From: an uncultured Parcubacteria group bacterium
GTDB lineage: Bacteria; Patescibacteriota; Patescibacteriia; UBA9934; CAMTUG01
Assembly: GCA_947084965.1 (NCBI GenBank)
Contig: CAMTUG010000001.1
Location: 345,293-409,292 of the forward strand
Reading direction: 5' to 3'
Length of the DNA: 64,000 bases
The number at the start of each line of letters is the position of its first letter. The first letter of the stretch is position 1. The notes under the pieces are model-generated. The model saw only the letters and a list, made by a program, of their open reading frames with translations. It searched no databases and had not been told where the DNA came from. Of the stretch, positions 18,313-49,847 are shown one piece after another. A program made the position numbers and the translations under genes.

Positions 18313-18313
18313 T

Positions 18314-20044: not shown

Positions 20045-20045
20045 T

Positions 20046-21785: not shown

Positions 21786-21786
21786 T

Positions 21787-23514: not shown

Positions 23515-23515
23515 T

Positions 23516-25249: not shown

Positions 25250-25250
25250 T

Positions 25251-26996: not shown

Positions 26997-26997
26997 T

Positions 26998-28683
26998 ATG
27001 TCGCATACGCCAAACTTTGACGCCAAGATCAACGCTGTCATCGACGCTTTGCCTGCGGGTAAGGACGCGGAGATCTGTCGCAAGTTTCGTGTCCCGCCAA
27101 TTAAAATGGATCCAACCGAGCAGTTGGATCTTCTAACCGGATTTAACACCGGAATGGCTTTTTTTTGGAAGCCGCACATGAAGACCGGTGTGCCACTGCT
27201 TTCGGCAATTCACCCAGATACCCCGATTCCTGTCGTCACCGAAGAGGAGTGGGTGGAGATGGATGCAACGACATTTGGTCAAGAGATTGATCTGGCACAG
27301 CCGGTGTTTGATCAACTCTGGGGATTAGTGACACGTGTCCCGCATAATCCGACGCGTAACTTGAATTGCACACAATCGGTCGCGGTTGGAACGATTAATG
27401 CTAATGATTGTTATTGCGTTTCTGCCTCGTATATTGTGAACCGCTGTTTATATGGATACGCCATGCTCAACGGGGAAGACTGTATCGATTCCGGCAATGG
27501 GATGAACGTCGCCCGTTCGTATCAATCCGGCGGAAGTAACGACATCAGTGATTGCCAGTATGTTTATGAATCAAAAGGGTGTTTGAACTCTTCGTTCTTA
27601 TTTGATTGCTGGAACTGCGAATTTTGTTTCGGAGCCACGAACCAGCGTAACAAACGGTTTCTCTTTTTTAATGAACAGTTAGACGAGGCGGAGTACAAAA
27701 AACGCCTTGCCGAGATTGATCTCTCCGATGCCTCGGTCGCTAACGTGTACATTAAGCGCTTTATGGCCTTATGGAGGGCGGAAGGTGTCTGGCCAGAGGC
27801 GTTTGGCTACGGAAATACCGAGGCGGAAGGGGAACACGTCTTCGGTTGTGTGCGTTGTCAGGAATGTTTCTGGCAGAACATGTCTGTTGACTGTTATCGT
27901 TGTCGTCTGGGTGCGAGCAACAGTGGTTGTGCGTACACATCAGGGGCCGGTTCCCAGCAGGATAGTTACATGACGACCGGAGGTACGTTCGGATCAGGAA
28001 ACAAGTTTTGCGTTGGTGCAACCAAATGCATTGGCTGTGAGTATTGTTTTAATTGTCGTGAGTGCGAGAACTGCTTTGGATGCGTTGGATTACAGCACAA
28101 GAAGTTTTGTATTTTTAACAAACAGTATACGGAGGAAGAATACTGGCGTCGTTTGGATGAACTTAAGTGTCAGATGTTAGAAGCAGAAGAGTACGGGTCG
28201 TTTTTCCCAGCCAAGTTTTCACCGTGTGGATTGCAGTTTTCCGCCGGGGAGATTTATGTTGGATACAGCGCTGAGCGTCTGAAGCAGTACGGGGCGCCGT
28301 ATCTTGATCCAAAACGCGGGCAGGTCTTTGCCCCACATCCGCAGGAGCTACAGCCGATTGAAGCTGACAGCTTACCGCTTCGTTTAGATGATGTTGATTC
28401 ATCGCTGTTCGTGGGAAAAGCTATTCATGATCCAGAATGCGATCGTCTTTTTACGATTCTCCCCTCTGAATTTGAAACGTATAAGGCGAAGCGTTGGCCC
28501 CTACCACGAAGGCACTTTACGACGCGGCTGATTGAGCTCGTCCGTCGCTCTAACTCGCCTATGCCAAAAGATGCTGAATGCGCTGCGTGTCATGTGGCGA
28601 TCACTACCTATCGTAACTTCACCTTTCCAGAACGGACGGTCTATTGTCGTTCATGTTACTTGAAGTTTTTGGAGACGCGCTAA
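26998..28683 (+). CDS. Cys-rich paralog family protein, member 7 of 10 (N-terminally truncated variant)
   Basis: MSHTPNFDAKINAVIDALPAGKDAEICRKFRVPP…. Lacks the GERVCxxTGEKW…WYKKFNVPP segment found in the other members. The rest of the family signature is intact. Confidence 0.65.
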   Translation: MSHTPNFDAKINAVIDALPAGKDAEICRKFRVPPIKMDPTEQLDLLTGFNTGMAFFWKPHMKTGVPLLSAIHPDTPIPVVTEEEWVEMDATTFGQEIDLAQPVFDQLWGLVTRVPHNPTRNLNCTQSVAVGTINANDCYCVSASYIVNRCLYGYAMLNGEDCIDSGNGMNVARSYQSGGSNDISDCQYVYESKGCLNSSFLFDCWNCEFCFGATNQRNKRFLFFNEQLDEAEYKKRLAEIDLSDASVANVYIKRFMALWRAEGVWPEAFGYGNTEAEGEHVFGCVRCQECFWQNMSVDCYRCRLGASNSGCAYTSGAGSQQDSYMTTGGTFGSGNKFCVGATKCIGCEYCFNCRECENCFGCVGLQHKKFCIFNKQYTEEEYWRRLDELKCQMLEAEEYGSFFPAKFSPCGLQFSAGEIYVGYSAERLKQYGAPYLDPKRGQVFAPHPQELQPIEADSLPLRLDDVDSSLFVGKAIHDPECDRLFTILPSEFETYKAKRWPLPRRHFTTRLIELVRRSNSPMPKDAECAACHVAITTYRNFTFPERTVYCRSCYLKFLETR

Positions 28684-28684
28684 T

Positions 28685-30415
28685 ATGTCGCATACACCAA
28701 ATTTTGATAGCAAATTACAAGCTCTTCTCGACGCCACCACGCCGGGTGAGCGCGTTTGTCGCATCTCTGACGAACGCTGGCTGCTCACGCCAGAGGAGAT
28801 CGATCGCTGTCGCGCTTGGGGTGTGCCTCCAAGCCCATACGCCCCAACAATGCGCCTCAAGCTGCTCGCTGCCTCAGCTGCGGGAGTTGATCTGTGGTGG
28901 CGTCCGCACGCTTTGACCCAAAAACCGATCCTTTCTTCTAGTGATCCGGACGCCCTTGCGCCCGTGGTGACAGACGATGAATGGTATACGCTCGATGATG
29001 GTTCTGCTCACGGCTTTTCTGCCGACGCGGAGCGTCCATTTTTTGAACAGTATGTTAAACTGATCCCGCTCATTCCGATGCAGGCGAACTACTCAACCGG
29101 ATCAGAAAACTGCATTGGGGGTGGTTTTGAAAAGTGCGTTAACGGATTCATGATATTCGGGTCGTTCACTTTGCAGGATTGCTGGTACACCTTTCGCAGT
29201 AAATCGGATGAGCGCTGTATGGATGTGGCATTCGTCGCTTACTCGCAGGACTGTTTTTCTTGCTGCATGGCCGACCGTTTGCACGGATGCACGCAGGTCT
29301 TTGATTCTCTTGATTGTATCAACTCACAATTCCTCTTTGACGCCCGCGACTGCGAATCCTGCTTCTGCTCGACCAACCTGCGTCGCCGCAAGTATGTTTT
29401 CATGAACGAACAGCTGACCAAAGACGAATATGAACGCCGGATGAGCGAGATCGATCTCGGCTGCTCGTCTGTCTTTGCAAAGTGGAAAGAGATCTTTCAT
29501 CAACTGCTTGCGACACAAGCGGTCTGGCCAGAGGCCTTTAGTATCAACTCGCCTGGGTGCGTTGGGGATTATCTATTGAATTGCCTGGATAGCTCGGGGT
29601 GGTACATGGATGATGCCCGCGACGTGCGAGGAGGATGGATGGTCTTCGGACAGTCCAGCCATTCGGAGGCGATCGTTGTGGCTCGCTCGGCGCAAGATGC
29701 GTACATGTCCGCTGGCGTCCTCGGAAGTCAGAATGTGAAGTTCTCGCTGGTGTCCAAGGACTCGACGGCGCTTGAGTATTGCAATAACTGTCGCGATTGC
29801 GAGAACTGCTTTGGCTGTCATTCGCTCCGCAGTAAAAAGTTTCATATCTTTAACAAGCCGTACAGCGAAGAGGAGTATTGGAAGACCATTGATGCCCTGA
29901 AGTGCGCCATGCTCGATCGTGGCGAGTACGGCCAGTGGTTTCCGCCGGTTGTTAGCAACTGGCGACCAGAAACGGGGTTCGCCTCTATTGTTTCGCCGCT
30001 GACGGATGTGGAGATCGCGCGTCTTGGTCTTACACCGTTCGATCCGAAGTCGGCGATGCGCTTTGCTCCGGCGAACAATCAAGCGGTCGGTAACTTGGCG
30101 GAAGTGCCAGACTGCATCGATCAGGTTGGTGCTGAATGGGCGAACGTGCCGTTTGACGATGTTTCTCAAGCTCGCCGGTTCAATGTGAGCTCACGCGAAG
30201 TTGAATTTCGCAAAGAGCGTCGTTATCCGTTTCCAAAATCGCATTACCGCGCTCGGCTGACCGAGCTTGTACGCCAGATCAACGGACCGGAAACGGAAAG
30301 CCGCCCCTGCGCCAAATGCCAGAAGGCGATGACAGTGAATAAAAATCAGATGTTCCCAGACCGTACGATCTATTGCATGGACTGTTTTTACACGTTCATC
30401 GAAAGTCGTGGTTAA
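28685..30415 (+). CDS. Cys-rich paralog family protein, member 8 of 10
   Basis: MSHTPNFDSKLQALLDATTPGERVCRISDERW…CAKCQKAMTVNKNQMFPDRTIYCMDCF. Confidence 0.7.
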   Translation: MSHTPNFDSKLQALLDATTPGERVCRISDERWLLTPEEIDRCRAWGVPPSPYAPTMRLKLLAASAAGVDLWWRPHALTQKPILSSSDPDALAPVVTDDEWYTLDDGSAHGFSADAERPFFEQYVKLIPLIPMQANYSTGSENCIGGGFEKCVNGFMIFGSFTLQDCWYTFRSKSDERCMDVAFVAYSQDCFSCCMADRLHGCTQVFDSLDCINSQFLFDARDCESCFCSTNLRRRKYVFMNEQLTKDEYERRMSEIDLGCSSVFAKWKEIFHQLLATQAVWPEAFSINSPGCVGDYLLNCLDSSGWYMDDARDVRGGWMVFGQSSHSEAIVVARSAQDAYMSAGVLGSQNVKFSLVSKDSTALEYCNNCRDCENCFGCHSLRSKKFHIFNKPYSEEEYWKTIDALKCAMLDRGEYGQWFPPVVSNWRPETGFASIVSPLTDVEIARLGLTPFDPKSAMRFAPANNQAVGNLAEVPDCIDQVGAEWANVPFDDVSQARRFNVSSREVEFRKERRYPFPKSHYRARLTELVRQINGPETESRPCAKCQKAMTVNKNQMFPDRTIYCMDCFYTFIESRG

Positions 30416-30416
30416 T

Positions 30417-32144
30417 ATGTCCAACACGCCCAACTACAACGCCAAAGTGAAGGCGATTCTCGAGGCGACAACGCCTGGGGAGCGGGTTTGTGCGTTAACG
30501 GGTGAGAAATGGATGCTGACAGATGAAGAGATCGGCTGGCTCAAAAAATTCCAGGTTCCGCCACATCCGTGGGCGCCGATCATGCGTTTGAAACAGATGA
30601 TGGGATTTCCGACTGGAATCGCCATCTGGCGCAAGCCCCACGCAGACACAGGGGAGCCGATCTTATCGTTCGTTCACCCAGACAATCCGTTCAAGGTGAT
30701 TACGGACAAAGAATGGTTTGCTCGAGACTTTGCGCAATCAACCAAAGAACTTGATCCTGACCGGCCGGTGTTCCCGCAACTGCAGGCACTAGCACAAGCA
30801 ACGCCTGTGGGCGCCCTGCGCGACGATGGAAGTAATATCAATTGCGTCGGCGTAGATATTATTGACGGCCAAGATTGCTACATGTTTTTTGGTGGCTACG
30901 GTAACAAACGCAGCATGTACGGTGCGGTTAGTTACGAATCTGAAGACGCTTGCCTGCTCACCAACACCAAGGGTATTCAGCGCTCCTACATGATCAATGC
31001 CTGTTCGGACCTGCATGGTTGTCGTTACTGTTTTCAAAATGGCAAGTTGATAAACTGCACTTTTTGTTTCGATTGTGACAATCTCGAATTTTGTTTTGGC
31101 GCATCAAATCAAAGTCACAAAAAGTATCTCTTCTGGAATGAACAGTTAACGAAAGAAGAGTGGGAACGTCGTGTTAGTGAAGTCGATCTTTCCGATCGTG
31201 GGGTTTGGGAAGCGCAGGTCAGGCGGTTTCATCAAATGGTTTGCGAAGAGGCGTACTGGCGTGCGGATTTTAACCTTGAGCCGCTCGAGGATAGCACTGG
31301 GGAATACTTGTTAAATTCGACCCGCCTGCACGATTGTTACTGGCAGGATGGCGGCACGGATCTCTATCGTTCTTGGATCGGGGTGGAGTCGCGCGAAAGT
31401 GCCTTTGTCGTTTGGTCCGGTTGGGGAGATGCGGCTTACATGTGCACAGATATTTTGAAGCATCATAATATCAAAATGTGCATGCGCGTCTGGCGTTCAC
31501 AAAACTTGGAATACTGTATCGATTGTTTTGACTGCGAGGACTGTTTTGGTTGTGTGGGCCTGCAACGCAAATCGTTCTGTATCTATAACAAACAGTACAG
31601 CGAAGCCGACTATTGGCAGAGGGTTGATGCCCTGAAGTGTGCCATGCTGGACCGTGGGGAGTACGGACAGTTTTTCCCCGCGCAGTTTTCTCAGGTCGGT
31701 TATGCCTATTCCATGGGGGAGTTGTACTTGGGCTACACACCGGAAGAATTGTCCCTTTTTGGAGCGCTGGAGTTTGATTCAACAAAGGGGAACGTGCATA
31801 CGGTCGATGGCACGCTCAAGGTAACGGATTTGCCGGACCGCCTGATAGACACCATTCCGGAGCAGCACGTGGGCAAGCCGATCCTCGACACCGCTCTCGG
31901 GCGACCGTTTACGATCACACCGACAGAGTTCGCCTTTTATCAGTCGCACGGGCTTCCTCTCCCACGCGAACACTTTTTGTCGCGAATGACGACCCTCTTC
32001 CGTCACGCCAACGGCCCAATCCCTGAACAGGCTCCGTGCGCCAAGTGCGGCACAAACGTGACAACGTGGAAAAACGCGCTCTTCTCCGGTCGCCGTCGTG
32101 TACTATGCAGGCCGTGTTATTTGCAGTATTTTGAGACACGATAA
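30417..32144 (+). CDS. Cys-rich paralog family protein, member 9 of 10
   Basis: MSNTPNYNAKVKAILEATTPGERVCALTGEKWMLTDEEIGW…CAKCGTNVTTWKNALFSGRRRVLCRPCY. Start at the conserved motif (tracked ORF begins at 30408). Confidence 0.7.
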   Translation: MSNTPNYNAKVKAILEATTPGERVCALTGEKWMLTDEEIGWLKKFQVPPHPWAPIMRLKQMMGFPTGIAIWRKPHADTGEPILSFVHPDNPFKVITDKEWFARDFAQSTKELDPDRPVFPQLQALAQATPVGALRDDGSNINCVGVDIIDGQDCYMFFGGYGNKRSMYGAVSYESEDACLLTNTKGIQRSYMINACSDLHGCRYCFQNGKLINCTFCFDCDNLEFCFGASNQSHKKYLFWNEQLTKEEWERRVSEVDLSDRGVWEAQVRRFHQMVCEEAYWRADFNLEPLEDSTGEYLLNSTRLHDCYWQDGGTDLYRSWIGVESRESAFVVWSGWGDAAYMCTDILKHHNIKMCMRVWRSQNLEYCIDCFDCEDCFGCVGLQRKSFCIYNKQYSEADYWQRVDALKCAMLDRGEYGQFFPAQFSQVGYAYSMGELYLGYTPEELSLFGALEFDSTKGNVHTVDGTLKVTDLPDRLIDTIPEQHVGKPILDTALGRPFTITPTEFAFYQSHGLPLPREHFLSRMTTLFRHANGPIPEQAPCAKCGTNVTTWKNALFSGRRRVLCRPCYLQYFETR

Positions 32145-32146
32145 GT

Positions 32147-33883
32147 ATGTCCAATACCCCGAATTTTGATCTGAAAGTGAAAGCAATTCTCGACGCCACT
32201 ACGGCTGGCGAGCGTGTTGATCGTTTGACGGGAGAGGCGTGGATGTTAACGGACACGGAGATCGATTGGTGTAAGAAGTTCAATGTACCACCAGCGACGG
32301 TCAGTCCAGAAACGCGCTGGAAGCACCATGGCGTTTGGTATGTTGGGTATCAGTATTGGTACCAATCGCATCCAGAAACGAGGAAGCCGATTATCTGCAC
32401 CGTCCATCCGGCGACAGGAATCAAAGTACTTCCAGACAAAGAATGGTTTGAAAAAGATTTTCTCTCCCACGGCCGCGAGTACCAACTCGACCGTCCATTT
32501 TTTGAGCAGTGGCGCGAACTGCAGCTTGCTGTACCGATGCCAGCCAGTCGCAATCATGTTGAGCCGGTCAATTCAATCGCCTTTGTATCGCAAGGTGATG
32601 AGGATAGCTATTTTGTCGGTGCTTCGAAAACAAAACGCACCTATTATGCTCATGCCGCCATGGATGTTGAAGATTGCGCAGAGGTATATGAATCCTCGAA
32701 GTTGCAGGAGTGTTTTAATGTCGCCGACTCTTCGCGTTTGCATCGGTGTTCATTTGTACGTGCGAGCTACGATTGTCTGAACTCCAGCTTCTTGTTTGAC
32801 TGCCGCAACTGTGAATTCTGTTTTGGTGCGACCAACAAGCGCAACAAGAAGTATCTGTGGTGGAACGAACAGTTAACGAAGGAGGAGTGGGAAAAACGAC
32901 GAGCGGAAGTTGATCTTGGGTCGCGTGCTGTTGTCAGTGAGCAGATGCAAAGATTCCGTACGTTCGTGCGCGAACGGGCCGTTTGGCCAGAAAATTTTAA
33001 CGATCATGCGATCGACTCGACAGGAGAGTATTTGTTCAAAACAACGCGGGTGATGGACTCCTATCTTTGCGGCGAAGGAGCGATAGACCAGTACTTCTGC
33101 AATTTTAGTTTCGGTCAGTCTGAGAACAATGCCTTTACAGGCTATCCCGTGAACGGAAGCGATATGTATTCTTGCGCCTCGATTTCCGGTCGGCGTCAGA
33201 AGTTTTGTTTTTTGACGATTCGTTCGGAGAATATGGAGTACTGCATGCTCTGTTATAATTGCACGGACTGCTTCGGGTGCATCGGGCTTCAACGCAAGCA
33301 GTTCTGCATTTTCAATAAACAATACACAGAGGAAGAGTATTGGAAGCGTGTAGATGCGCTCAGGTGCACTATGCTTGATCGCGGCGAGTATGGAGAGTTT
33401 TATCCAGCCGGGTTTTCACCGAGCTATCCGGGGGATTCGGGGGCGATGTATTGGTTTGGAGCGACCAAGGAAGAGTTGAAAAAGATGGGAGTGATGGAAT
33501 TTGAACCGGAATCCCTGGGAGCGATCGGGGAGGAATTGGCGGATCCTTCTAAAATGAGAAACGTGAGTGAGCTCCCGGATTATGTACGTGATCTCACCGA
33601 CGATTGGATCGGTGTGCCGTTGTTTGATCCGGTGGCAAACCGTCGCTTCGCTATGATTCGTCCAGAAGTTGAGTTTTACCGTCGGATGAACGTCGCTCCG
33701 CCGACCAAGCATTTCACTGCTCGGTTAAAGGATCTGTGGGTGGAGGTTAATCAAGGGAGCTTTATGGAAACTACCTGCACTGCTTGCGGAAAAGCGTTAC
33801 GCGTTGCCAAGAACGCAGGACACCCCGAACGGAAGATCCTTTGTATTGAGGACTATCTCAAATTCATCGAGCAACACGGATAA
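32147..33883 (+). CDS. Cys-rich paralog family protein, member 10 of 10
   Basis: MSNTPNFDLKVKAILDATTAGERVDRLTGEAW…FDCRNCEFCFGATNKRNKKYLWWNEQLTKEEWEKRR…CTACGKALRVAKNAGHPERKILCIEDY, with Cys replaced by Asp. Confidence 0.7.
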   Translation: MSNTPNFDLKVKAILDATTAGERVDRLTGEAWMLTDTEIDWCKKFNVPPATVSPETRWKHHGVWYVGYQYWYQSHPETRKPIICTVHPATGIKVLPDKEWFEKDFLSHGREYQLDRPFFEQWRELQLAVPMPASRNHVEPVNSIAFVSQGDEDSYFVGASKTKRTYYAHAAMDVEDCAEVYESSKLQECFNVADSSRLHRCSFVRASYDCLNSSFLFDCRNCEFCFGATNKRNKKYLWWNEQLTKEEWEKRRAEVDLGSRAVVSEQMQRFRTFVRERAVWPENFNDHAIDSTGEYLFKTTRVMDSYLCGEGAIDQYFCNFSFGQSENNAFTGYPVNGSDMYSCASISGRRQKFCFLTIRSENMEYCMLCYNCTDCFGCIGLQRKQFCIFNKQYTEEEYWKRVDALRCTMLDRGEYGEFYPAGFSPSYPGDSGAMYWFGATKEELKKMGVMEFEPESLGAIGEELADPSKMRNVSELPDYVRDLTDDWIGVPLFDPVANRRFAMIRPEVEFYRRMNVAPPTKHFTARLKDLWVEVNQGSFMETTCTACGKALRVAKNAGHPERKILCIEDYLKFIEQHG

Positions 33884-35319: not shown

Positions 35320-35348
35320 TTGACAAAAGGGGATTTGCCGAGTACGAT
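35320..35348 (+). promoter_or_regulatory. sigma70-like promoter TTGACA-17-TACGAT
   Basis: Consensus -35 with a 17-nt spacer, 24 nt upstream of the ATG at 35372. Confidence 0.4.
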
Positions 35349-35371
35349 CCTCCTCCACCCAAGGACCAACC

Positions 35372-35791
35372 ATGTTTCGTGATCTTCTCTTCGGTCTTCT
35401 CGACGTCATCGATCGCCGCCTCCGGACCAAGCGACCCGAGATGCGGATCGTCGATCCGCAGATCTTCATCGAGAAGATCATCGAAGCGTGCCCGGGCGAG
35501 CTCGACGTCCACATCTTCGGAACGGACAGCGGCGGGTGTGAGTTCGACCTCCTCGCGACCGAGCCGGACGGCCCCGGAACGCTCTACCGGGTGATCTTCT
35601 TCCCGGAGATGCACCCCTTCCCGCCGATCTACCGCGTCCTGGTCGCCCAACACGACGGGTGTGGCACCATCCGGAACCCCCTGCAGGTCCTTGAAGCGAA
35701 CCGTCACACGCTCCTGGACTACATCGGGATCGAGCGCCTCGAGAAGGCGGTCGGCATCCAACCGGTCCCTGAACAACTCGCCGAGGCCTGA
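35372..35791 (+). CDS. hypothetical protein in a high-GC islet
   Basis: 139 aa ORF at about 62% GC with strong GC3, unlike its neighbours. It has its own promoter. Confidence 0.45.
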   Translation: MFRDLLFGLLDVIDRRLRTKRPEMRIVDPQIFIEKIIEACPGELDVHIFGTDSGGCEFDLLATEPDGPGTLYRVIFFPEMHPFPPIYRVLVAQHDGCGTIRNPLQVLEANRHTLLDYIGIERLEKAVGIQPVPEQLAEA

Positions 35792-35856
35792 ACCTCGCGC
35801 TTCGACCCTCCCTGGACACTCCAGGGAGGGCCGCTGCTTGATAAAGGAGGATTTCT

Positions 35857-36939
35857 TTGATAGTCTCAAACGTTATGGAAGCAAAGAAGCCCAAAGTTCT
35901 GGTCGGTATGTCTGGCGGAGTCGATTCATCGCTCTCCGCGGCGTTGTTATTGGAACAAGGGTTTGAAGTCATCGGTGGGTTCATGAAGAACTGGAGTGGG
36001 TCAACGAAGGTTTGCGAAGGGACGGAGGAGTTTAAAGAATGCGATTGGCGCGATGAGCGCCGTGATGCCATGCGCGTCGCCGCCCAACTTGGCATCCCGC
36101 TTCTGACGTTCGATTTTGAAAACGCATATCGCGCTAATGTTGTGGATTACATGGTTGCCGAATACGAAGCAGGTCGCACACCAAATCCCGACGTGATGTG
36201 CAACAAGTTCATGAAGTTCGATCTGTTTGTGAAAGAGGCGGATAAGCTTGGTTGTGAGTATGTCGCGACAGGTCACTATGCGCGACAAGAGAATGGAAAG
36301 CTTCTTGCAGGATCGGATCCAAATAAGGATCAAAGTTATTTTCTCTGTCAGATGCCACGTGAGGTGTTGCCTCGGGTCCTTTTTCCTGTCGGCGGAATGC
36401 TCAAACCTGACGTTCGTCGTGAAGCAGAGGAACGTGGTCTTGTCGTTGCTGATAAGCCAGACAGTCAAGGCGTCTGCTTCATCGGGGAAATCAACATGAC
36501 GGCATTCCTCCAGGAGCGCATTCCAAAAAAACCGGGAAAGATCGTGACGACGGATGGAGTAATCGTCGGGGATCACGACGGCATCGCCTTTTACACGATC
36601 GGCCAGCGCGAAGGGCTGAAGATCGGCGGACTGGCCACTCCGTATTATGTTGTTGCCAAGAATGCGGAGCGCAACGAGCTCGTTGTTTCTAGTAACTTTC
36701 ATGAGGAGTTGTATAAAGATGAACTCGAAGTGGCGGACATGAATTGGCTCGTGGATCCAAAAGAAGGGGAGTTTACTGCGCGCATCCGCTATCGCCAGCC
36801 GCTCGAGACGTGTCAGCTCACAATGAACGGCGACACACTTCACATCAAATTCAAAACGCCCCAGCGCGCAGTGACGCCAGGGCAGTTTATTGTGTTCTAC
36901 GATGGGGAGATCGTCCTCGGCGGTGGAGTGATTGTCTAA
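35857..36939 (+). CDS. mnmA: tRNA-specific 2-thiouridylase MnmA
   Basis: PP-loop VLVGMSGGVDSS and catalytic Cys residues. 360 aa. Confidence 0.85.
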   Translation: MIVSNVMEAKKPKVLVGMSGGVDSSLSAALLLEQGFEVIGGFMKNWSGSTKVCEGTEEFKECDWRDERRDAMRVAAQLGIPLLTFDFENAYRANVVDYMVAEYEAGRTPNPDVMCNKFMKFDLFVKEADKLGCEYVATGHYARQENGKLLAGSDPNKDQSYFLCQMPREVLPRVLFPVGGMLKPDVRREAEERGLVVADKPDSQGVCFIGEINMTAFLQERIPKKPGKIVTTDGVIVGDHDGIAFYTIGQREGLKIGGLATPYYVVAKNAERNELVVSSNFHEELYKDELEVADMNWLVDPKEGEFTARIRYRQPLETCQLTMNGDTLHIKFKTPQRAVTPGQFIVFYDGEIVLGGGVIV

Positions 36940-36940
36940 T

Positions 36941-36979
36941 TTGACATCGCCGTTTTTTCGTGATAATTTTTTCGTGATA
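36941..36979 (+). promoter_or_regulatory. TTGACA-containing promoter-like element overlapping a 13-bp exact direct repeat (TTTTTTCGTGATA x2)
   Basis: TTGACA at 36941-46. Repeats at 36953-36965 and 36967-36979. No long ORF before the terminator at 37070. Confidence 0.3.
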
Positions 36980-37069
36980 TGAATATTTTCCGCCGCCATT
37001 ACGACTATAAGAACTTCTCACCTTCTTCCGAGAGCGGGCTGCGTTGATGTACTCAAAGCATAAATTCGG

Positions 37070-37101
37070 CCCCTTCTCGAAAGAGAAGGGGTCTTTCGTT
37101 T
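37070..37101 (+). terminator. rho-independent terminator (CCCCTTCTC-gaaa-GAGAAGGGG + TCTTTCGTTT)
   Basis: Perfect 9-bp stem, GAAA tetraloop and a T-rich tail. Confidence 0.5.
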
Positions 37102-37162
37102 AATCAAGGACGAGAGCTTGATTCGAGCCGTCCTTTCACAACTCACACGGGATAGGTGAAAC

Positions 37163-38152
37163 ATGTCGAAGAACAAACCCCCTCCGCCGGGTAGTGTGGA
37201 GGTCGATCCGCTTCTGTTCGTCATCATCTTCGGTGCCCTGGCTTTTTGGGCCATTGTCCTGGCTTTGATTGCCGGTGTGTATGCTGTGTGCGTTGCGGTG
37301 TGGATGTTCATGACCACCTACCCGTTGGTGAGCGTGCTCATCGTTGTTGCGGTGACTATCCTCCTCCTCGTGATGTGGACCGTCCACACGAGCAAGCCCG
37401 AGCTGCTCCCGGGTCACTTCAAGGTGATCCCGCTCTGCGATCGTGACCGCCGCGAGTACCGGGTTGCCAAGGTCAACGATGCTTGGTGGCTGATCCTCCC
37501 TGGCGCCTGGATCATCGCCACGGCCATGGGGTTCGTGTTGAGCGCCATCTCTGGGCTCATCGGCCTGGCTGACGTCCTCTTCAGTGATGCTTTGGCCGGC
37601 GCCCTCCAGTTCGATCCGGCGCTGTCCGCGATCGTCAGTAGTCATCCGTGGCTGGGGTACATGTTCCTTGTTCTGGTGTTTTTCTCCGCCGCCATCGGGG
37701 CGATGCGCCAGACGATCTGGCTCGCCTGGGTTCGCTCCTCGGCCGTGCGCAAGGATCCGCGGCGGATCCAGCTCCTCAAGCTCATTCGTACGATCAACTG
37801 GTGGAACGAACATCTGCCGGTCTTCAACGATCTGGCCGCCTCGGGCGAGGGTAAGGAGCAGGTGGAGAAGCTCGCGCAGACCCGTGCCAAGCTCGTGGAA
37901 TGGCTTAACCGGATGTGCAGTCGGCTCGCTGTCGCCCCGCTCGGTTCCTTCCCGCAGAGCGCCACCCCGCTCGAGATTCCCGAACTTCGGGAACTTGGCG
38001 CGCTGGTCGAAGACCTGAAGCACCAGCCGATCCTTCAGGCCATCAAGGCCGATCTCGAGGATCTCGAGCACCCCGACCGCACCCCTGACCCGAAGACGGT
38101 CGAGCGCTGGCACGCGTTTGCCAGGTTCCTTCGTCTTAAGGTCAATCGCTAG
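37163..38152 (+). CDS. hypothetical membrane protein in a high-GC islet (N-terminal TM helices, C-terminal helical cytoplasmic domain)
   Basis: 329 aa, about 62% GC. No recognisable motif. Confidence 0.5.
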   Translation: MSKNKPPPPGSVEVDPLLFVIIFGALAFWAIVLALIAGVYAVCVAVWMFMTTYPLVSVLIVVAVTILLLVMWTVHTSKPELLPGHFKVIPLCDRDRREYRVAKVNDAWWLILPGAWIIATAMGFVLSAISGLIGLADVLFSDALAGALQFDPALSAIVSSHPWLGYMFLVLVFFSAAIGAMRQTIWLAWVRSSAVRKDPRRIQLLKLIRTINWWNEHLPVFNDLAASGEGKEQVEKLAQTRAKLVEWLNRMCSRLAVAPLGSFPQSATPLEIPELRELGALVEDLKHQPILQAIKADLEDLEHPDRTPDPKTVERWHAFARFLRLKVNR

Positions 38153-38178
38153 TGGCAACTTCATGCCGCAAAGAAATG

Positions 38179-38220
38179 CCCCGGACCGTACTGGTCCGGG
38201 GTACTTTCATTATTTTTTCT
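38179..38220. terminator. bidirectional intrinsic terminator hairpin (CCCCGGACC-gtact-GGTCCGGGG) between convergent genes
   Basis: 9-bp stem with a T-run on the plus strand. Lies between 37163..38152(+) and 38210..38737(-). Confidence 0.45.
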
Positions 38221-38737
38221 TCTTCCCGTTCATCGACGTTTCAATGCTGCGTTCAATTTTGCCAAGATCGAGCCATTCTTTCATCTGTTCGAGTTCAGGG
38301 TCGTCTGCGTGCTTGACGTTCAGTTTGTGTTGAATGTCATCGAGCATGCGTAAAACTTTCGTCACTTCTTTTTCAGCGTTGACGTTGATTTGAAAATTTA
38401 CTTCGTCGCGGATGACGTCGATCTTTGCCGCGCGGTTTTGACTGACCAAGACGAAGATAGATAGGAAGATCGCTTCCAAAGAGACGACCATGGTCAACAT
38501 TCCGTACGGATACGGATCAAAAATAGAGATCTGCGGAATCCACCCTTGATTCGTCACTACCCAAAAAGTGAAAAAAATGATGTTTAACAACAAAAACCAA
38601 ATACTACCGAACGCCTCCGTCATCCAGTCCGCCAAACGTTCGCTCCGCGTTTTGGTGTACTGCAACTTTTCTTCGAACAGGTCGACAATTTTCTCGTGCG
38701 GTAATTTCCTCCGTGCCATATAAATAAAGTATACCAT
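38210..38737 (-). CDS. DUF1003-family membrane protein
   Basis: 175 aa with two TM helices. Contains …ADWMTEAFGS…DPYPYGMLTMVVSLEAIF…VLVSQNR…, which is DUF1003-like. Confidence 0.55.
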   Translation of the reverse strand: MVYFIYMARRKLPHEKIVDLFEEKLQYTKTRSERLADWMTEAFGSIWFLLLNIIFFTFWVVTNQGWIPQISIFDPYPYGMLTMVVSLEAIFLSIFVLVSQNRAAKIDVIRDEVNFQINVNAEKEVTKVLRMLDDIQHKLNVKHADDPELEQMKEWLDLGKIERSIETSMNGKKKK

Positions 38738-38748
38738 AAAATCGAAGC

Positions 38749-38772
38749 GCCCGGGACCAGTACGGCCCGGGG
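38749..38772 (-). terminator. hairpin (CCCGGGACC-agtac-GGCCCGGG), an inverted copy of the 38179 hairpin; terminator for 38789..39163(-)
   Basis: Its sequence is approximately the reverse complement of the hairpin at 38179-38201. Confidence 0.4.
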
Positions 38773-38788
38773 CTTGAAGAAGATGTGC

Positions 38789-39163
38789 TCAGACGGAGCG
38801 ACGGATGACCTGCACCGGTTCGAGGTCGTACAGGTACACCAGCTGCTTCTGGCGGCGGCTGCCTCCGAGGTGTCGGCCCATGGGGCGGGCCGGGACGATC
38901 ACCCGCGAACCCTCCTCGATGTAGATCTTCGACCTCCGCGGATGGACGAAGGTCAGGCGTTCTTCGCAGCGCTTGATCGTCGCGACCTTGGCGTTGAACC
39001 TGCGATCGACCTCCGCGGTGGTGACGAAGTAGCCGAGCGATTCGAGGTGAGCCAGGAGCTGACCTTCCTCGGTCGAGTAGGGCTTGATCTGTCCGCGGAG
39101 TTCGCGGAAGACGCGGATGGCGTTGTCGGCGGTCATTGTGGCCAGGACAGCAGCGAGCAGCAT
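38789..39163 (-). CDS. hypothetical small protein in a high-GC islet (possible paralog of 5611..5988)
   Basis: GGAGG 7 nt upstream of the ATG at 39163. The overlapping plus-strand N-extension of the lepA ORF looks like an antisense artefact. Confidence 0.45.
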   Translation of the reverse strand: MLLAAVLATMTADNAIRVFRELRGQIKPYSTEEGQLLAHLESLGYFVTTAEVDRRFNAKVATIKRCEERLTFVHPRRSKIYIEEGSRVIVPARPMGRHLGGSRRQKQLVYLYDLEPVQVIRRSV

Positions 39164-39229: not shown

Positions 39230-41017
39230 ATGGCCGACCAAAAACAGATTCGCAACTTCTGCATTATCGCCCACATCGACCACGGCAAATCGACCCTTGC
39301 TGACCGGTTGCTTGAAGTCACTGGGACGGTGGAAAAGCGCAAAATGCAGGAGCAGATTCTGGACTCCATGGACCTGGAGCGCGAAAAGGGGATTACGATC
39401 AAGCTCGCTCCGGCACGCATGCATTTCAAAGATCACGTCTTGAACTTGATCGACACTCCCGGCCACGTTGATTTTCATTACGAAGTTTCGCGCTCGCTCG
39501 CTTCGGTCGAGGGGGCTGTTCTGCTCGTTGACGCCGCCCAGGGGGTACAGGCCCAGACGATCGGAAACTTGTACACCGCCCTTGAGCACAACCTCACCAT
39601 CATCCCGGTGTTGAATAAGATCGACTTGCCCGCGGCGGACATCCCTCGTTGTACGGCCGAACTGGTCAACTTGCTCGGTTGCGCTCCAGAAGAAATTTTG
39701 CACGTCAGTGGAAAAACGGGCGCCGGCGTGCCAGAACTTCTTGATGCCATTGTCGAGCGGATCCCTGCGCCAAAAGGGGAATCCGCAAACCCTCCACGCG
39801 CGGTTGTGTTTGATGCCAAATATGATGAGTATAAAGGGGTCGTAGCGTACGTTCGTGTTGTGGATGGTACGTTCAAAAAGGGTGACAAGATGATCATGCA
39901 TGCCACCCATGCGGATTCGGAAATTTTGGAACTCGGTGCACTGACCCCGAAGTACTCGCCCCTTTCGCAACTCGAAACGGGCCAGATCGGCTACGTCGTC
40001 ACCGGTTTTAAAGACCTCTCCGCTTGTCGCGTTGGGGATACCGTTTCCTTGCAAGGGGAAGACGTTGCCGCGCTCCCTGGATATCGTGAAGTGAAACCGA
40101 TGGTTTACGCCGGTATTTTCCCAAAAGAAGGGCATACCTACGAACATCTGCGCAACGCCATGGGTAAGTTGAAGTTAAACGATGCTGGATTGGTCTTTGA
40201 ACCAGAGCATTCGCCCGCGCTTGGCTATGGATTTCGTGTAGGCCTCCTGGGGATGTTGCACTTGGAGATCGTTACTCAGCGCTTAGAGCGTGAATCGAAC
40301 ATGGAGATCGTCGTTACGGTGCCGTCTGTTGTCTATCATATCTATGCTAAGGGCAAGCCGGAAGCGATCCCGATCAAATCTCCGCTCGAAATGCCCGATC
40401 CGTCGCATATTGATCGGATTGAAGAGCCGTGGGCAACGGTCGACATGATTACCCCCAAGGAGTACATCGGGGCTGTGATGCGCGTGGCAACGGAAGGCAA
40501 AGGGGAGTACGTCAATACCAACTATCTCTCCGGCGAACGGGCTATTTTGCGTTACAACATGCCGCTTTCGCAAGTGATCGTTGATTTTTACGACATCTTA
40601 AAGTCTGTTTCGAGCGGCTATGCATCACTCAACTATGATTTGATCGGCTACCGCGAGGCCGATGTGGTGCGTTTGAGTATCCTCGTGGCCGAAGAGGAAG
40701 TGGAATCCTTATCAATGCTCGTCTATCGCTCCGAAGCCGAACGCGTCGGCCGCCGTATCTGTGAAAAACTGAAGGAGTCAATCCCACAACAGATGTTTGA
40801 TATCAAATTGCAGGCAGCGATCGGTGGGAAGATCATTGCGGCGGAGCGCATTCAAGCGATGAAGAAAGATGTCATCGCCAAATTGTACGGCGGTGACGTA
40901 ACGCGCAAGAACAAGTTGCTCGACAAGCAGAAAAAGGGCAAAAAGAAGATGATGGCGATGGGGGTTGGGAAGGTTGATATTCCAACGGACGCTTATTTGA
41001 ATGTGCTAAAACGCTGA
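39230..41017 (+). CDS. lepA: translation elongation factor 4 (LepA)
   Basis: IRNFCIIAHIDHGKSTLADRLL, DTPGHVDF, NKIDLP, and the LepA C-terminal domain. Start at MADQKQ. Confidence 0.9.
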   Translation: MADQKQIRNFCIIAHIDHGKSTLADRLLEVTGTVEKRKMQEQILDSMDLEREKGITIKLAPARMHFKDHVLNLIDTPGHVDFHYEVSRSLASVEGAVLLVDAAQGVQAQTIGNLYTALEHNLTIIPVLNKIDLPAADIPRCTAELVNLLGCAPEEILHVSGKTGAGVPELLDAIVERIPAPKGESANPPRAVVFDAKYDEYKGVVAYVRVVDGTFKKGDKMIMHATHADSEILELGALTPKYSPLSQLETGQIGYVVTGFKDLSACRVGDTVSLQGEDVAALPGYREVKPMVYAGIFPKEGHTYEHLRNAMGKLKLNDAGLVFEPEHSPALGYGFRVGLLGMLHLEIVTQRLERESNMEIVVTVPSVVYHIYAKGKPEAIPIKSPLEMPDPSHIDRIEEPWATVDMITPKEYIGAVMRVATEGKGEYVNTNYLSGERAILRYNMPLSQVIVDFYDILKSVSSGYASLNYDLIGYREADVVRLSILVAEEEVESLSMLVYRSEAERVGRRICEKLKESIPQQMFDIKLQAAIGGKIIAAERIQAMKKDVIAKLYGGDVTRKNKLLDKQKKGKKKMMAMGVGKVDIPTDAYLNVLKR

Positions 41018-44472: not shown

Positions 44473-44847
44473 ATGGCCACAAAGTTGATTATTCAAATCA
44501 TTGAGCCGGACAACTATCTCGCCGGCATTTATGGCCGCAAGTTTGAAGCAGAAGGCTGGAAAGTACTCATCGCCGAGAATTTTGAGGAAGCAGAAAAACA
44601 GCGCTTAAAGGTTAAGGTTTCCGCTATTATTCTTGAACCAGATATCGACATCAAGGCCGCAGAGAACGTTTTAAAAAGCTTGCGCAAGGATCCGGCGACA
44701 GCAACGATTCCGCTCCTTATTTTTTCAACGATCGCCGAAAAGGCCGAGATCGCCAAGATGAAAAAGGCCGGCGCTAACGCCTATCTGCTCAAAGGGCATT
44801 TTGTCCCGAGCGAGGTTGTGCGCAAAGTTAAATCCATGTTACTCTAA
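44473..44847 (+). CDS. receiver-domain-like protein (atypical: EPD in place of the DD acidic pair)
   Basis: 124 aa with a CheY-like fold pattern (…AIILEPDIDI…IPLLIFST…AYLLKG) but non-canonical acidic-pocket residues. Confidence 0.45.
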   Translation: MATKLIIQIIEPDNYLAGIYGRKFEAEGWKVLIAENFEEAEKQRLKVKVSAIILEPDIDIKAAENVLKSLRKDPATATIPLLIFSTIAEKAEIAKMKKAGANAYLLKGHFVPSEVVRKVKSMLL

Positions 44848-44854
44848 TAGTCGT

Positions 44855-45346
44855 ATGCGTGGTTTTACCAAGATCGAACTTATCGTCGCCCTGGCCATCG
44901 TCGGTATTTTGGCTTCACTTTCGGCGGTCGCTTTGAATTCTGCCCGCGAACGCGCCCGAGACGCCAAACGCATCGCGGATGTCGCTCGCACCCAAGTCGC
45001 GCTCGAACTCTATTTCAACGATCACAACAGCTATCCTGTTTTGACTTCAGCAACGGCGCTCGGTTCTTCGGCGGCCCGTTGTTTGGCTGGAGAGGGGTTT
45101 GTCCCTTCCTGCGACACCCAGACCGAGTCGGTTTACCTGGAACGCGTACCGTCTACCCCGACCGACGGGCTCGGTGAATTAGTTGGGTGCTCCGGAGCAG
45201 AAAATGCCTATTGTTACGTTGGAGAGGCCGAGGCGTATCGTATTCAGTTTGAAGTGGAGAACGACAATCCCGAAGGGAAATTACAAGCCGGCGTAAATTG
45301 TGCGACAGAATCCGGTATCGTTGCTGGAGCCTGTGAAGCATTATAG
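44855..45346 (+). CDS. type IV pilin / pseudopilin (prepilin-type N-terminal cleavage/methylation domain)
   Basis: MRGFTKIELIVALAIVGILASL class-III signal (G|FTxxE). Confidence 0.7.
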   Translation: MRGFTKIELIVALAIVGILASLSAVALNSARERARDAKRIADVARTQVALELYFNDHNSYPVLTSATALGSSAARCLAGEGFVPSCDTQTESVYLERVPSTPTDGLGELVGCSGAENAYCYVGEAEAYRIQFEVENDNPEGKLQAGVNCATESGIVAGACEAL

Positions 45347-47327: not shown

Positions 47328-49847
47328 ATGCCCCTTGAGGTGCAATCAGGAGGAGTGGATTCAGCAACGATCGTCATGATCGCCGTCTTAGTGTTGTGGC
47401 CAGCCGCCCTGGCGATCGTCGTTTTTGCTGTGCGCTGGGCCGCCCGTCAGTTTTTGCACCGTCACGGCAAGACGTTTAAGATGGTTACCCTGTTGGTAAC
47501 GTTGCCAAAGTTTCGTCGTGAGGAAGAGACCAAAGAGGATTCTACAGCACAGAAGGTGCAGGAAGATATTTCGGTAGACGAAACATTTTTCGCGGCGATT
47601 GCTGGATTGCACGCCCAACGCGGGGTGATGCCCTGGTTGCTCGGCCGTTCGGATAATTATGCGTTCGAAATCGTTGCTCACGAAAAGGTGATCAAGTTTT
47701 ACGTGACCGTGCCACGGCGTTATCAGGAGTTTGTTGAGCAGCAGATCACTGCCCAGCATCCAGATGCGTTCGTCGAAGAGGTTGAAGATTACAACATCTT
47801 CAGTCCAACCGGAACGATCCTCGGTGGATATTTGCAGCAGGCCCGCGAAACATTTTTTCCGATCAAGACATTTCGTAAACTTGAAACCGATCCACTGAAT
47901 GCGATCACCAACGCCTTGTCAAAAGTTCCAGAAACGGACGGCGTAGCCATTCAGTATATGGTCCGGCCGGCCACGCCGGGTTGGCGCAAGCAGGGCGCTA
48001 AGGTGGGAAAGAACATGTTGAAAGGGATGACGTTGCGCGAAGCGATGAAGGGCCATAAAAAAGGATCAAGCTGGGTTTCTCTTCTTTCTGGTAAGAAATC
48101 GGAGCAGGCCGAACAAAAGTCCGGCTCCTATTACATGACCCAGACCGAGCAGGACATGACCAAGAATATTGAAGAGAAGATCAGTAAAGGCGGACTTGAG
48201 GTCAATATTCGCGTCGTCGTTTCGGCGAAAGGCCCTGAAGAGGCGCATGATTTACTAAAGGATGTCATGAGCGCCTACGCCCAGTACAACATCTTCGAAT
48301 ACGGAAACGCCCTCGAGAAGTTTATTCCGCTGCGCAAAAAGCACTTGATTAAGAAGTTCATCTACCGCGGGTTTGATGAAACGCGTACCTGTGTGTTCAA
48401 TACCGAAGAGATGGCCTCGCTTTTCCATTTGCCGTTGAAAACAACAGAAACGCCAAACATTCAATGGCTGACCGCACGCACCGCTCCGGTTCCAGCCCAA
48501 GTACCTCAGCGGGTGCCAGAAGATGCCGACCTGCTCCTTGGCTATAACGTCTATCGCGGTCGTAAAATCAACGTGGCGATTAAACGGCCGGATCGTCAGC
48601 GCCACATGTACATCATCGGTAAATCTGGTTCCGGTAAAACGGTCTTCATCCAAACGTTGGCCTTGCAAGATATTATGCGCGGGGAAGGGGTTTGTGTTCT
48701 TGATCCGCACGGAGACATGATCGAATGGCTACTCGGTCACATTCCGAAGAGCCGGATTGACGACGTCGTTTTGTTCGATCCTTCAGACCTTGATCGCCCG
48801 GTCGGATTAAACATGCTGGAAGTCAACCAGGAATCGCAGCAGGACATGGCGACGTCGGAGATGATCTCGATCTTTTACAAGCTTTTCCCGCCAGAAATGA
48901 TCGGGCCGATGTTTGAACACCACATGCGCAACGTGATGTTGACCTTGATGGCCGATCCGGGCAATCAGGGGACGATCGCAGAAATTCCGCGCATGTTTAG
49001 CGATAATGATTTTCAAAAGGCCTGGGTGGCTAAAGTGAAGAATCCGGTCGTGCGGTCGTATTGGGAAAACGAAGTAGCCAAGACGAGCGATTTTCATAAA
49101 TCAGAAATGCTCGGCTATTTGATCTCCAAAGTTGGTCGCTTTGTGGAAGACACGATGATGCGCAACATCATCGGTCAACAGAAGTCCGGATTCAACTTCC
49201 GCGAGATCATGGATAAGAAAAAGATTTTGCTCGTTAACCTAGCCAAAGGAAAGACAGGCGAAGTCAACTCGTCCCTTCTGGGGATGATTATCGTTTCCAA
49301 GTTACAGATGGCCGCCTTGGCGCGTGCGGATATGCCAGAAGAAGAGCGGAGTGATTTTTACTTATACATTGACGAGTTCCAAAACTTTATTACTGATTCG
49401 ATCTCGACGATTCTGTCTGAGGCGCGTAAGTATCGCTTGAACTTGATCGTCGGCCACCAGTACATGGGCCAGCTGGTCAAGGATGGGAAGACGGACATCC
49501 GTGATGCGATTCTCGGGAACGTCGGTTCAACGTTCGTCTCGCGTATCGGGCCTGAAGACGCGGAAACGCTCGAAAAGTTGTATTCGCCGACTTTTGCTGG
49601 ATACGATCTGATCAACTCAGATAAGTATACGTGGTATGCGAAGCTAATCGTTGATAATACCCAAGTAAAGCCGTTTACGTTAAAGACCTTCCCCCCACCA
49701 AAGACCGATCCCAAGTTGGCTGCGGCTATTAAGCAGTTGGCCCGCTTGAAGTACGGTCGTGATCGCGCGATCGTCGAGGCAGAGATTCTTGAGCGCTCGT
49801 CGATCAAGGCGCAAGTGGTGACCGGGACGGGCGAACGAGGCGTATAA
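47328..49847 (+). CDS. VirD4/TraD/TrwB-like coupling-protein-family ATPase, fused form (membrane N-domain + P-loop ATPase in one 839-aa protein)
   Basis: N-terminal TM plus a region homologous to 11360..13084. C-terminal YIIGKSGSGKT, DPHGDM, YLYIDEFQNF, LIVGHQYM homologous to 13086..15065. No zinc-ribbon tail. Confidence 0.75.
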   Translation: MPLEVQSGGVDSATIVMIAVLVLWPAALAIVVFAVRWAARQFLHRHGKTFKMVTLLVTLPKFRREEETKEDSTAQKVQEDISVDETFFAAIAGLHAQRGVMPWLLGRSDNYAFEIVAHEKVIKFYVTVPRRYQEFVEQQITAQHPDAFVEEVEDYNIFSPTGTILGGYLQQARETFFPIKTFRKLETDPLNAITNALSKVPETDGVAIQYMVRPATPGWRKQGAKVGKNMLKGMTLREAMKGHKKGSSWVSLLSGKKSEQAEQKSGSYYMTQTEQDMTKNIEEKISKGGLEVNIRVVVSAKGPEEAHDLLKDVMSAYAQYNIFEYGNALEKFIPLRKKHLIKKFIYRGFDETRTCVFNTEEMASLFHLPLKTTETPNIQWLTARTAPVPAQVPQRVPEDADLLLGYNVYRGRKINVAIKRPDRQRHMYIIGKSGSGKTVFIQTLALQDIMRGEGVCVLDPHGDMIEWLLGHIPKSRIDDVVLFDPSDLDRPVGLNMLEVNQESQQDMATSEMISIFYKLFPPEMIGPMFEHHMRNVMLTLMADPGNQGTIAEIPRMFSDNDFQKAWVAKVKNPVVRSYWENEVAKTSDFHKSEMLGYLISKVGRFVEDTMMRNIIGQQKSGFNFREIMDKKKILLVNLAKGKTGEVNSSLLGMIIVSKLQMAALARADMPEEERSDFYLYIDEFQNFITDSISTILSEARKYRLNLIVGHQYMGQLVKDGKTDIRDAILGNVGSTFVSRIGPEDAETLEKLYSPTFAGYDLINSDKYTWYAKLIVDNTQVKPFTLKTFPPPKTDPKLAAAIKQLARLKYGRDRAIVEAEILERSSIKAQVVTGTGERGV

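Follow-up and report, generated by a model that had tools for sequence, protein, structure and literature searches.

The stretch of DNA analysed here (the window) comprises 64,000 nucleotides of contig CAMTUG010000001.1 from an uncultured Parcubacteria group bacterium. Its genes include uppP, mnmA, lepA, recJ, secDF, cysS, PilM, a type IV pilin-like gene and three genes for VirD4/TraG-like ATPases, and interspersed with these are five short genes, here termed islets ISL0 to ISL4, whose G+C content (GC) stands well above the 0.518 of the window as a whole (Table 1). The MnmA protein (35857-36939) has its nearest relatives, 76-79% identical, in Patescibacteria metagenome-assembled genomes (MAGs), and its remoter relatives, 50-63% identical, are labelled Candidatus Uhrbacteria; judged by these protein affinities, the genome is that of an Uhrbacteria-like groundwater Patescibacterium. 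The 5.4 kb from uppP to ISL3 are base-for-base identical in the independent Logan contig L001 and the islet proteins are also recorded on an NCBI contig of 476,519 bp, so that a local misassembly is unlikely.

Measured against 55 non-islet genes, obtained by greedy selection and all from the window (GC 0.511±0.023, maximum 0.556; G+C at third codon positions, GC3, 0.580±0.052, maximum 0.703), the five islets show no overlap in either quantity and lie 4.1-6.0 standard deviations out, which bears out the initial annotation in its claim that these open reading frames (ORFs) are richer in GC (0.611-0.644) and GC3 (0.794-0.891) than their neighbours. The main source of the excess is cytosine at third codon positions (C3), which accounts for 42-58% of islet third positions vs 27% in the background, and this excess tracks the coding strand for islet genes in either orientation. 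The islets prefer the codons GCC, GTC, ACC and CTC and the backbone GCG, ACG and TTG; NNC is favoured over NNT in every two-fold pyrimidine family of the islets, and their third-position profile is that of donor-like contigs of 72-76% GC. With C-ending codons and hardly any A or T in third place, the islets bear the codon signature of a high-GC bacterium. The composition steps fall within ~60 nt of the islet gene edges, and the flanking uppP and mnmA are of ordinary composition. All-against-all BLAST of the five islet proteins gave a single match, over 46 residues of ISL0 and ISL4, and the paralogy suggested by a shared motif is not supported by alignment of ISL0 with ISL3 (BLASTP E = 1.1). 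The five islets are unrelated, protein-coding accessory genes and constitute a compositional anomaly. A blind segmentation of 201-nt GC recovered all five together with one extra segment, 14382-14967, which was rejected as a sixth islet because it is the Pro/Ala/Gly/Ser low-complexity tail of a VirD4-like gene.

Table 1. Islets and associated features of the window, with GC, GC3 and their z-scores (GC / GC3).
Feature	Positions	Strand	GC	GC3	z	Remarks
ISL0 gene	5611-5988	-	0.611	0.794	4.3 / 4.1	Slot between HAD gene and native CYTH gene
ISL0 promoter-like site						TTGACT-16-TACTCT
ISL1 cassette	35320-35835	+				Promoter-like site, gene and hairpin
ISL1 promoter-like site	35320-35348	+				TTGACA-17-TACGAT
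ISL1 gene	35372-35791	+	0.633	0.836	5.3 / 4.9	139 aa; slot between uppP and mnmA
ISL1 3' hairpin	35803-35833	+				G+C-rich
ISL2 gene	37163-38152	+	0.617	0.797	4.6 / 4.2	Slot between mnmA and lepA
Bidirectional terminator hairpin	38177-38203	+				G+C-rich; after ISL2 and DUF1003; 23-nt core
DUF1003 gene	38210-38737	-	0.438			Pfam DUF1003 E 2e-26; low GC outlier between ISL2 and ISL3
Second hairpin copy	38748-38771	-				G+C-rich; ISL3 terminator; inverted, 2 mismatches over the 19-nt core searched, loop inverted
ISL3 gene	38789-39163	-	0.643	0.848	5.7 / 5.1	Slot between mnmA and lepA
ISL3 promoter-like site						TTGACC-17-TAGGTT
tRNA-Gln(CTG)	55168-55241	+				ARAGORN; Rfam RF00005 62 bits; 150 nt from ISL4 stop codon
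ISL4 islet	55290-55917	-				174-aa CYTH protein and ~100 nt GC-rich non-coding 3' flank
ISL4 gene	55393-55917	-	0.644	0.891	5.8 / 6.0	Slot between tRNA-Gln and NUDIX gene
ISL4 promoter-like site						TTGACA-17-TAGGTT

ISL1 belongs to a clade-restricted family with four further clusters among 1.84 billion representatives, its proteins having 137-140 residues, a C-terminal -EA and 18 invariant columns. The structural model of ISL1 (predicted local distance difference test score, pLDDT, 75) suggests a generic beta-alpha-beta-beta-beta likeness to VOC-fold proteins, and a Foldseek comparison of the model with the PDB returned nothing at E < 0.1. In the related locus L089 the gene order is paralogue array, hydrolase, uppP, ISL1 homologue, mnmA, one gene, lepA and recJ; the uppP-mnmA slot also holds ISL1 homologues in L096/L097 and L004, and in L090 a homologue lies beside the same paralogue array and hydrolase. 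These occurrences overturn the proposal that ISL1 is a recent single-gene insertion. Among the ISL1-bearing genomes the flanking MnmA and UppP proteins are 61-84% identical, the ISL1 proteins 24-49%. At such flank identities synonymous sites should be saturated, so that an old import which has merely failed to ameliorate does not account for ISL1. The homologues nevertheless have a GC3 of 0.74 (L089), 0.73 (L090) and 0.86 (L096) vs 0.47-0.61 in their neighbours and a C3 of 0.47-0.51 vs 0.21-0.28, and raised GC3 is kept in four of the five intact ISL1 copies across assemblies as well as in a fragment in L004.

The occupancy of this slot varies. ISL1 is absent from L002, where uppP and mnmA lie 17 nt apart, and in L003 a cupin gene takes its place. 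In L004 an intact ISL1 copy (8315-8704), divergent and of ordinary composition, lies upstream of a 55-codon chimeric ORF (L004:8777-8941) that reads MANRRKVLVGMSGGVDSSLSA followed by NYGSLTEYLGANALRASINTRHHTSSVDEYPEA. Its first part corresponds to residues 1-21 of MnmA and passes, at an 'LSA' found in both proteins, into the 33 C-terminal residues of an ISL1-family protein. The ISL1-derived part of this ORF has a GC3 of 0.79, and downstream of it lie a terminator of the ISL1 type, a low-GC ORF of 231 aa and a complete mnmA (9968-11059). The coexistence of intact copy and chimera indicates that two different ISL1 alleles met in one genome via a microhomology junction, and we regard this scar as direct evidence of DNA from another lineage recombining into the uppP-mnmA slot. 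ISL1, we infer, is a long-standing resident of the slot whose alleles have been exchanged, and not a recent insertion.

In the mnmA-lepA interval the window and L002, L003, L004 and L089 carry mostly unrelated genes, several of those in the relatives being GC-rich. ISL2, an ORFan of 329 aa, has hydrophobic segments at its N-terminus and centre, putatively membrane-spanning, and a charged C-terminal part. It has three homologous clusters among 5.8 billion proteins, the alignment of which contains 86 invariant columns, including PWLGY, DPRR, FNDLAxSG and LAVAPLGSFP, and its homologues lie on Patescibacteria-like contigs of ~50% GC with typical neighbours, in differing contexts. ISL2 matched nothing in Pfam, the PDB, PADLOC or viral sequences, the lone PHROG match being insignificant (E 0.0068), and no homologue occupies the mnmA-lepA slot of L002-L004 or L089. 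The DUF1003 gene next to it gave no tblastn match in L002-L004, and none was called in L089. The hairpin that follows ISL2 and recurs after ISL3 occurs twice in the window vs zero times expected, the copies, at 38178-38201 and 38748-38771, bracketing DUF1003; outside the window it was seen in L001 (the same genome) and in one probable chance match in L030. With two window copies only, it was rejected as a dispersed repeat, and the pair hints at a common source for the ISL2 and ISL3 cassettes or at a duplication upon the arrival of DUF1003.

ISL3, a 124-aa ORFan, retrieved only itself in a word-indexed search of 5.8 billion proteins. Its sole homologue, L002:15983-16513(-), is 34% identical, has a GC3 of 0.83 and lies in the same mnmA-lepA interval, which tells against ISL3 as a new insertion; a metagenome scan with the alignment of the two returned the L002 contig only. 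A single-sequence AlphaFold2 model of ISL3 was unusable (pLDDT 39), and PDB sequence searches with ISL0, ISL2 and ISL3 yielded nothing significant. The first 150 codons of the adjoining lepA (39230-39679, +) have a GC3 of 0.73 vs 0.60 for the remainder (Fisher p 0.003) and a C3 of 0.41 vs 0.29 (p 0.008), and only 8 of 1174 background 150-codon windows reach a GC3 of 0.72. This rise was not seen in relatives and may mark where a recombination tract encompassing ISL3 ends; ISL3 would itself be a long-standing resident of the interval with exchanged alleles rather than a new insertion. Comparison of the aligned loci shows that the gene content of these backbone slots differs between relatives, so that the synteny breaks anticipated at the islets are found for ISL2 and, in L002 and L003, for ISL1, and are not found where ISL1 and ISL3 recur.

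ISL4 matches Pfam CYTH (PF01928) at E 4.5e-7, with 30.3 bits vs a cutoff of 23.2, and its N-terminal motif IEIERRF, corresponding to ExExR, is the same in its closest homologues. All 74 homologues are ≤50% identical, and the cluster of ISL4 itself has one member. The named homologues are from Gemmatimonadota or Longimicrobiales, three of the contexts examined bearing Gemmatimonadota-type names, and several lie on Mb-scale contigs. The homologue contexts that were fetched, five out of five, have 72-74% GC, and the CYTH genes in them a GC3 of 0.86-0.98; this shows a high-GC, donor-like lineage for ISL4. The non-coding flank of the gene (55320-55440) has a GC of 0.77-0.78, which is beyond codon selection but within reach of a transferred fragment. 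A second CYTH gene in the window, 6414-6965, is of ordinary composition. The islet also adjoins a tRNA gene. The most plausible reading of ISL4 is that of a xenologue whose source is a high-GC bacterium not yet sampled. The taxonomic affinity that BLAST had been expected to reveal is thus distant for ISL4, of Gemmatimonadota type, and homologues of ISL1-3 occur only in Patescibacteria-like contigs.

ISL0 is a 125-aa ORF that matches Pfam ASCH (PF04266) at E 0.005 (17.9 bits, under the gathering cutoff of 21.2), with further weak matches to a PHROG 'RNA-binding protein' family (E 0.0015) and to PDB 1xne (E 0.47), and it is probably a small protein with an ASCH/PUA-like, RNA-binding-type domain. 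The 46-residue local similarity to ISL4 (ANEKITICSGDY vs ANEQIAICQGYF) amounts to 37% identity at a pairwise E of 5e-7 and spans proteins given different domains (ASCH-like vs CYTH); it could be chance helped by common composition, or ISL0 could be kin to the CYTH N-terminus. At this position the databases hold a 145-aa (+) ORF, P0126 (5581-6018), antisense to ISL0, with no Pfam match and an atypical pattern in which G+C at first codon positions exceeds GC3, and high GC3 has probably led the public annotation to the wrong strand here. Beside ISL0, positions 5989-6413 form 425 nt without genes, with TTGACA-17-TATTCT at 6077-6105 (+) and a strong hairpin and T run at 6232-6252. These signals could belong to a small RNA of ~130 nt or to the leader of the native CYTH gene; the stretch has no Rfam match even at E ≤ 1.

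Full-length antisense ORFs lie opposite all five islets in the codon-aligned frame, where a stop requires a sense TTA, CTA or TCA codon. Such codons number zero in the islets, except for one in ISL4, and homologues of ISL1, ISL2 and ISL3 elsewhere contain 0-9 antisense stops, at least one in all but one of them. Since the stops are set by codon content and are present in homologues, the antisense ORFs are by-products of high GC3, which upholds the earlier description of them as spurious and compositional in origin; as real or dual-coding genes they were rejected, being interrupted in homologues and without any Pfam family match. For ISL1, ISL2 and ISL4 the coding strand and conservation are established by protein alignment. 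GC-rich DNA leads gene callers to the wrong strand, and 5581-6018 is a probable case.

The expression signals that the initial annotation had ascribed to every islet were found in part. Promoter-like -35/-10 pairs lie 16-23 nt ahead of the start codons of ISL0, ISL1, ISL3 and ISL4 and no clear pair lies upstream of ISL2; a promoter scan of the window was overall not above shuffles. Strong Shine-Dalgarno-like sequences, AGGAGG or GGAGG, precede ISL0 (AGGAGG ahead of its ATG), ISL3 (GGAGG) and ISL4, and weaker ones ISL1 (AAGGA only) and ISL2 (GGTGA only). G+C-rich terminator hairpins follow ISL1, ISL2 and ISL3. RNA fold z-scores of the islets are only -2.5 and -1.8, terminators included, and the only Rfam match was the tRNA; an RNA function was rejected on these modest scores and on the absence of Rfam families.

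The pattern extends through the clade. In a survey of 56 Uhrbacteria-like loci centred on mnmA, 148 ORFs confined to a single locus were compared with 300 backbone ORFs. Among the former, 26% exceed the backbone median by ≥8 GC points and 6% fall short of it by ≥8 points, figures to be read with the greater frequency of chance ORFs in GC-rich DNA in mind; the corresponding shares of the backbone ORFs are 0% and 1.7% (n=300). The GC-rich ORFs of the clade have a C3-rich signature in common and are mostly unrelated to one another, and those with family matches (histidine phosphatase, LysM, cupin, TPR) point to ordinary accessory functions. The more extreme examples include L002:101-640, L027:6262-6858, L024:19191-19466 and L022:19656-19988, with a GC3 of 0.86-0.94 over a backbone of 0.38-0.51, and even where the backbone has 40% GC the islets reach ~60-64%.

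We read the islets as accessory cassettes in turnover slots, exchanged by recombination with GC-richer gene pools, and give this reading a probability of about 0.55. Incoming DNA would arrive by uptake or by a conjugation-like transfer, a route suggested by the pilus components, RecJ and VirD4-like ATPases that the window encodes, and would recombine by way of conserved flanking genes, either homologously or through homology-facilitated illegitimate recombination, and not by an integrase. The source of ISL4 would be a high-GC bacterium outside the Patescibacteria; that of ISL1-3 may be GC-richer Patescibacteria as yet unsampled, or a mobile pool. The events would differ in age, ISL4 appearing lineage-specific and little ameliorated, ISL1 and ISL3 old residents. 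Such cassette exchange accounts for ISL4, the slot polymorphism, the L004 scar, the lepA tract and the presence of the low-GC DUF1003 gene beside high-GC genes. Of the horizontal acquisition proposed earlier there remain discrete accessory genes in variable slots and the high-GC nearest homologues of ISL4; the qualifiers 'recent' and 'single-gene insertion' fall away for ISL1 and probably for ISL3.

Several observations weigh against this reading. The GC3 of ISL1 stays at 0.73-0.86 across four lineages despite deep divergence, where amelioration after an import ought to have removed the excess, and a GC-richness that persists in several lineages is left unexplained by cassette exchange alone. 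No homologues of ISL1-3 were found in high-GC genomes, phages or plasmids (5.8 and 1.84 billion proteins, IMG/VR, and phage or plasmid collections), and with no GC-rich home found for them their GC-rich source pool is hypothetical. None of the five islets has an integrase, a transposase, an att repeat or a duplicated target. ISL4, at ≤50% identity to any sampled homologue, leaves donor and date unpinned.

The persistence of GC3 in ISL1 could also mean that the variable-slot genes form a lasting GC-rich class with C-ending codons on a backbone of ~50% GC, maintained across speciation, an account that we think unlikely. Two causes might sustain such a class: gene-specific selection on codon or RNA composition, or alleles imported again and again from a GC-rich reservoir not yet sampled, be it a host bacterium or a mobile element of Patescibacteria, by recombination that uses conserved neighbouring genes as anchors, for instance the 5' end of mnmA, which codes for the PP-loop.

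The main rival to cassette exchange dispenses with gene transfer and holds that ISL1-3 at least are vertically inherited members of a native codon-usage class in which selection keeps C-ending codons, for instance because they make translation faster or more accurate, stabilise the mRNA or avoid A/U-rich sites that RNases target; we judge it unlikely. It fits ISL1 and ISL3, in that the ISL1 family is confined to clade and slot with its GC3 elevation kept and the ISL3 homologue of L002 is likewise GC-rich in the same interval, and the C3 excess on the coding strand in both orientations is what selection at the codon level, rather than a replication-linked mutation bias, would produce. The preference for NNC over NNT in every two-fold pyrimidine family also counts in its favour. 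It does not fit ISL4, whose homologues and GC-rich non-coding flank indicate import, nor the intact ISL1 copy of ordinary composition in L004. Peroxiredoxin (4499-4966) and pilin-like (44801-45346) genes, of types that are usually highly expressed, have ordinary GC3 values of 0.55 and 0.53; the islet proteins are fast-evolving, unlike typical highly expressed genes; and most other ORFans of the window are not GC-rich. No ribosomal-protein or EF-Tu gene was found by motif in the window or in the relatives' loci that were fetched. The 'distinct codon-usage class' offered earlier as the other option describes ISL1 better than recent insertion does and does not fit the ISL4 flank.

That the islets are remnants of phages or integrative elements, moron-like cassettes left behind as a prophage or element decayed, is improbable. 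Their promoter-gene-terminator architecture and deviant composition resemble morons; ISL4, alone among the five islets in adjoining a tRNA gene, has a PHROG match (E 6e-13) to a family of unknown function, ISL0 has its weak PHROG RNA-binding match, and the L002 gene beside the ISL3 homologue has weak helix-turn-helix matches. Family scans of the window proteins, however, revealed no phage structural, integrase or recombinase genes near any islet and no integrase domain in any window ORF scanned, and no att-type repeat of the 3' end of tRNA-Gln was found around ISL4. IMG/VR scans with single proteins and alignments gave no islet relatives, ISL0 had no tblastn match among GenBank phages and PLSDB plasmids, and PADLOC defence-system models matched none of the five islet proteins.

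A local GC-raising process without foreign origin, such as GC-biased gene conversion or another recombination-associated bias at hotspot slots, is very improbable. The slots are recombination-active, the GC3 of the adjoining lepA 5' end is also raised, and GC-biased gene conversion is reported to raise GC3 in recombining bacterial genes (PMC4450053). Yet the gain is chiefly in C, not G, on the coding strand in either orientation, the boundaries at gene edges are sharp with uppP and mnmA ordinary, a low-GC DUF1003 gene sits in the same slot, and conversion needs homologous partners, which would be wanting for such divergent ORFans. An artefact of chimeric assembly, binning contamination, chance ORFs or antisense-encoded genes is scarcely credible: GC-rich DNA does open long ORFs on both strands, the public annotation at ISL0 is on the opposite strand and ISL3 has one known homologue, but the islets are 0.4-1 kb tracts inside a contiguous backbone reproduced by two assemblies, the protein alignments of ISL1, ISL2 and ISL4 are conserved in the frames given here, the antisense ORFs lack family matches and are interrupted in homologues, and islets of the same kind occur in relatives from other studies.

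Other features of the neighbourhood deserve record. Ten head-to-tail paralogues (16462-33883) encode proteins of 561-617 aa with 19-33 cysteines each and 33-52% pairwise identity, their sole family match being a weak one to a treble-clef zinc-finger at the C-terminus; copies of this array lie upstream of the hydrolase-uppP genes in L089 and L090 too. The three VirD4/TraG/TrwB-like coupling-protein ATPases within 64 kb are encoded at 13065-15065, 15069-16523 and 47328-49847, and it is the first of these whose Pro/Ala/Gly/Ser-rich tail makes up the one further high-GC segment of the window. In SecD (8396-10393), residues 237-350 form a peptidyl-prolyl isomerase (rotamase) domain of the PpiC type, located between the SecD_1st and P1-head domains.

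In groundwater Patescibacteria, individually transferred genes and small islands have been documented, mostly exchanged among Patescibacteria and occasionally with other phyla (PMC12455944). Like the islets, those islands are scattered single genes of accessory or unknown function in the same phylum and habitat type; they were defined by donor-recipient phylogeny between MAGs, whereas the islets rest on a compositional signal, with no donor for three of the five genes, and ISL1, syntenic across relatives, would not count as a recent transfer in the terms of that study. The ORFans of E. coli (PMC3514957; reviewed in PMC12315717) are, like the islets, short, lineage-restricted, fast-evolving, patchy and of no known function. 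In those studies the ORFans and acquired genes have a higher AT content than their host genome, whereas the islets are 10-13 GC points richer than theirs, a reversed polarity that a quarter of the single-locus ORFs in the 56 related loci share.

Integron gene cassettes are likewise small, unrelated single-gene units of varied composition between hairpin-forming sites, and the structures closest to the ISL1 model include VOC-fold integron cassette proteins. Integron cassettes are marked by an IntI integrase with attI and by attC sites at their ends; neither IntI nor attI is present, the islets point both ways and have their own promoters, and the one hairpin that is repeated has two copies and looks like an ordinary terminator. 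The morons of lambdoid phages are extra genes that bring a promoter and a terminator of their own and deviate in base composition. The islets have the same single-gene form, in which a sigma-70-like promoter and a Shine-Dalgarno site precede a single ORF and a hairpin terminator follows it, and a composition unlike that of their neighbours; morons sit inside a prophage or phage, whereas the islets lie outside, with uppP, mnmA, lepA, recJ, HAD and NUDIX genes as neighbours.

Compositional islets being a standard sign of gene transfer, and transfer into Patescibacteria being already documented, our main result is in itself ordinary and adds a new example of a known phenomenon. It also shows that a 'foreign' composition alone does not date a transfer, since ISL1 is GC-rich in a fixed slot across long-diverged lineages. 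If a persistent GC-rich class exists, its polarity would be opposite to that of the usual AT-rich ORFans, and if ISL1 owes its persistent GC-richness to exchange with a partner or element rich in GC, the islets could mark unseen hosts or mobile elements of these episymbionts.

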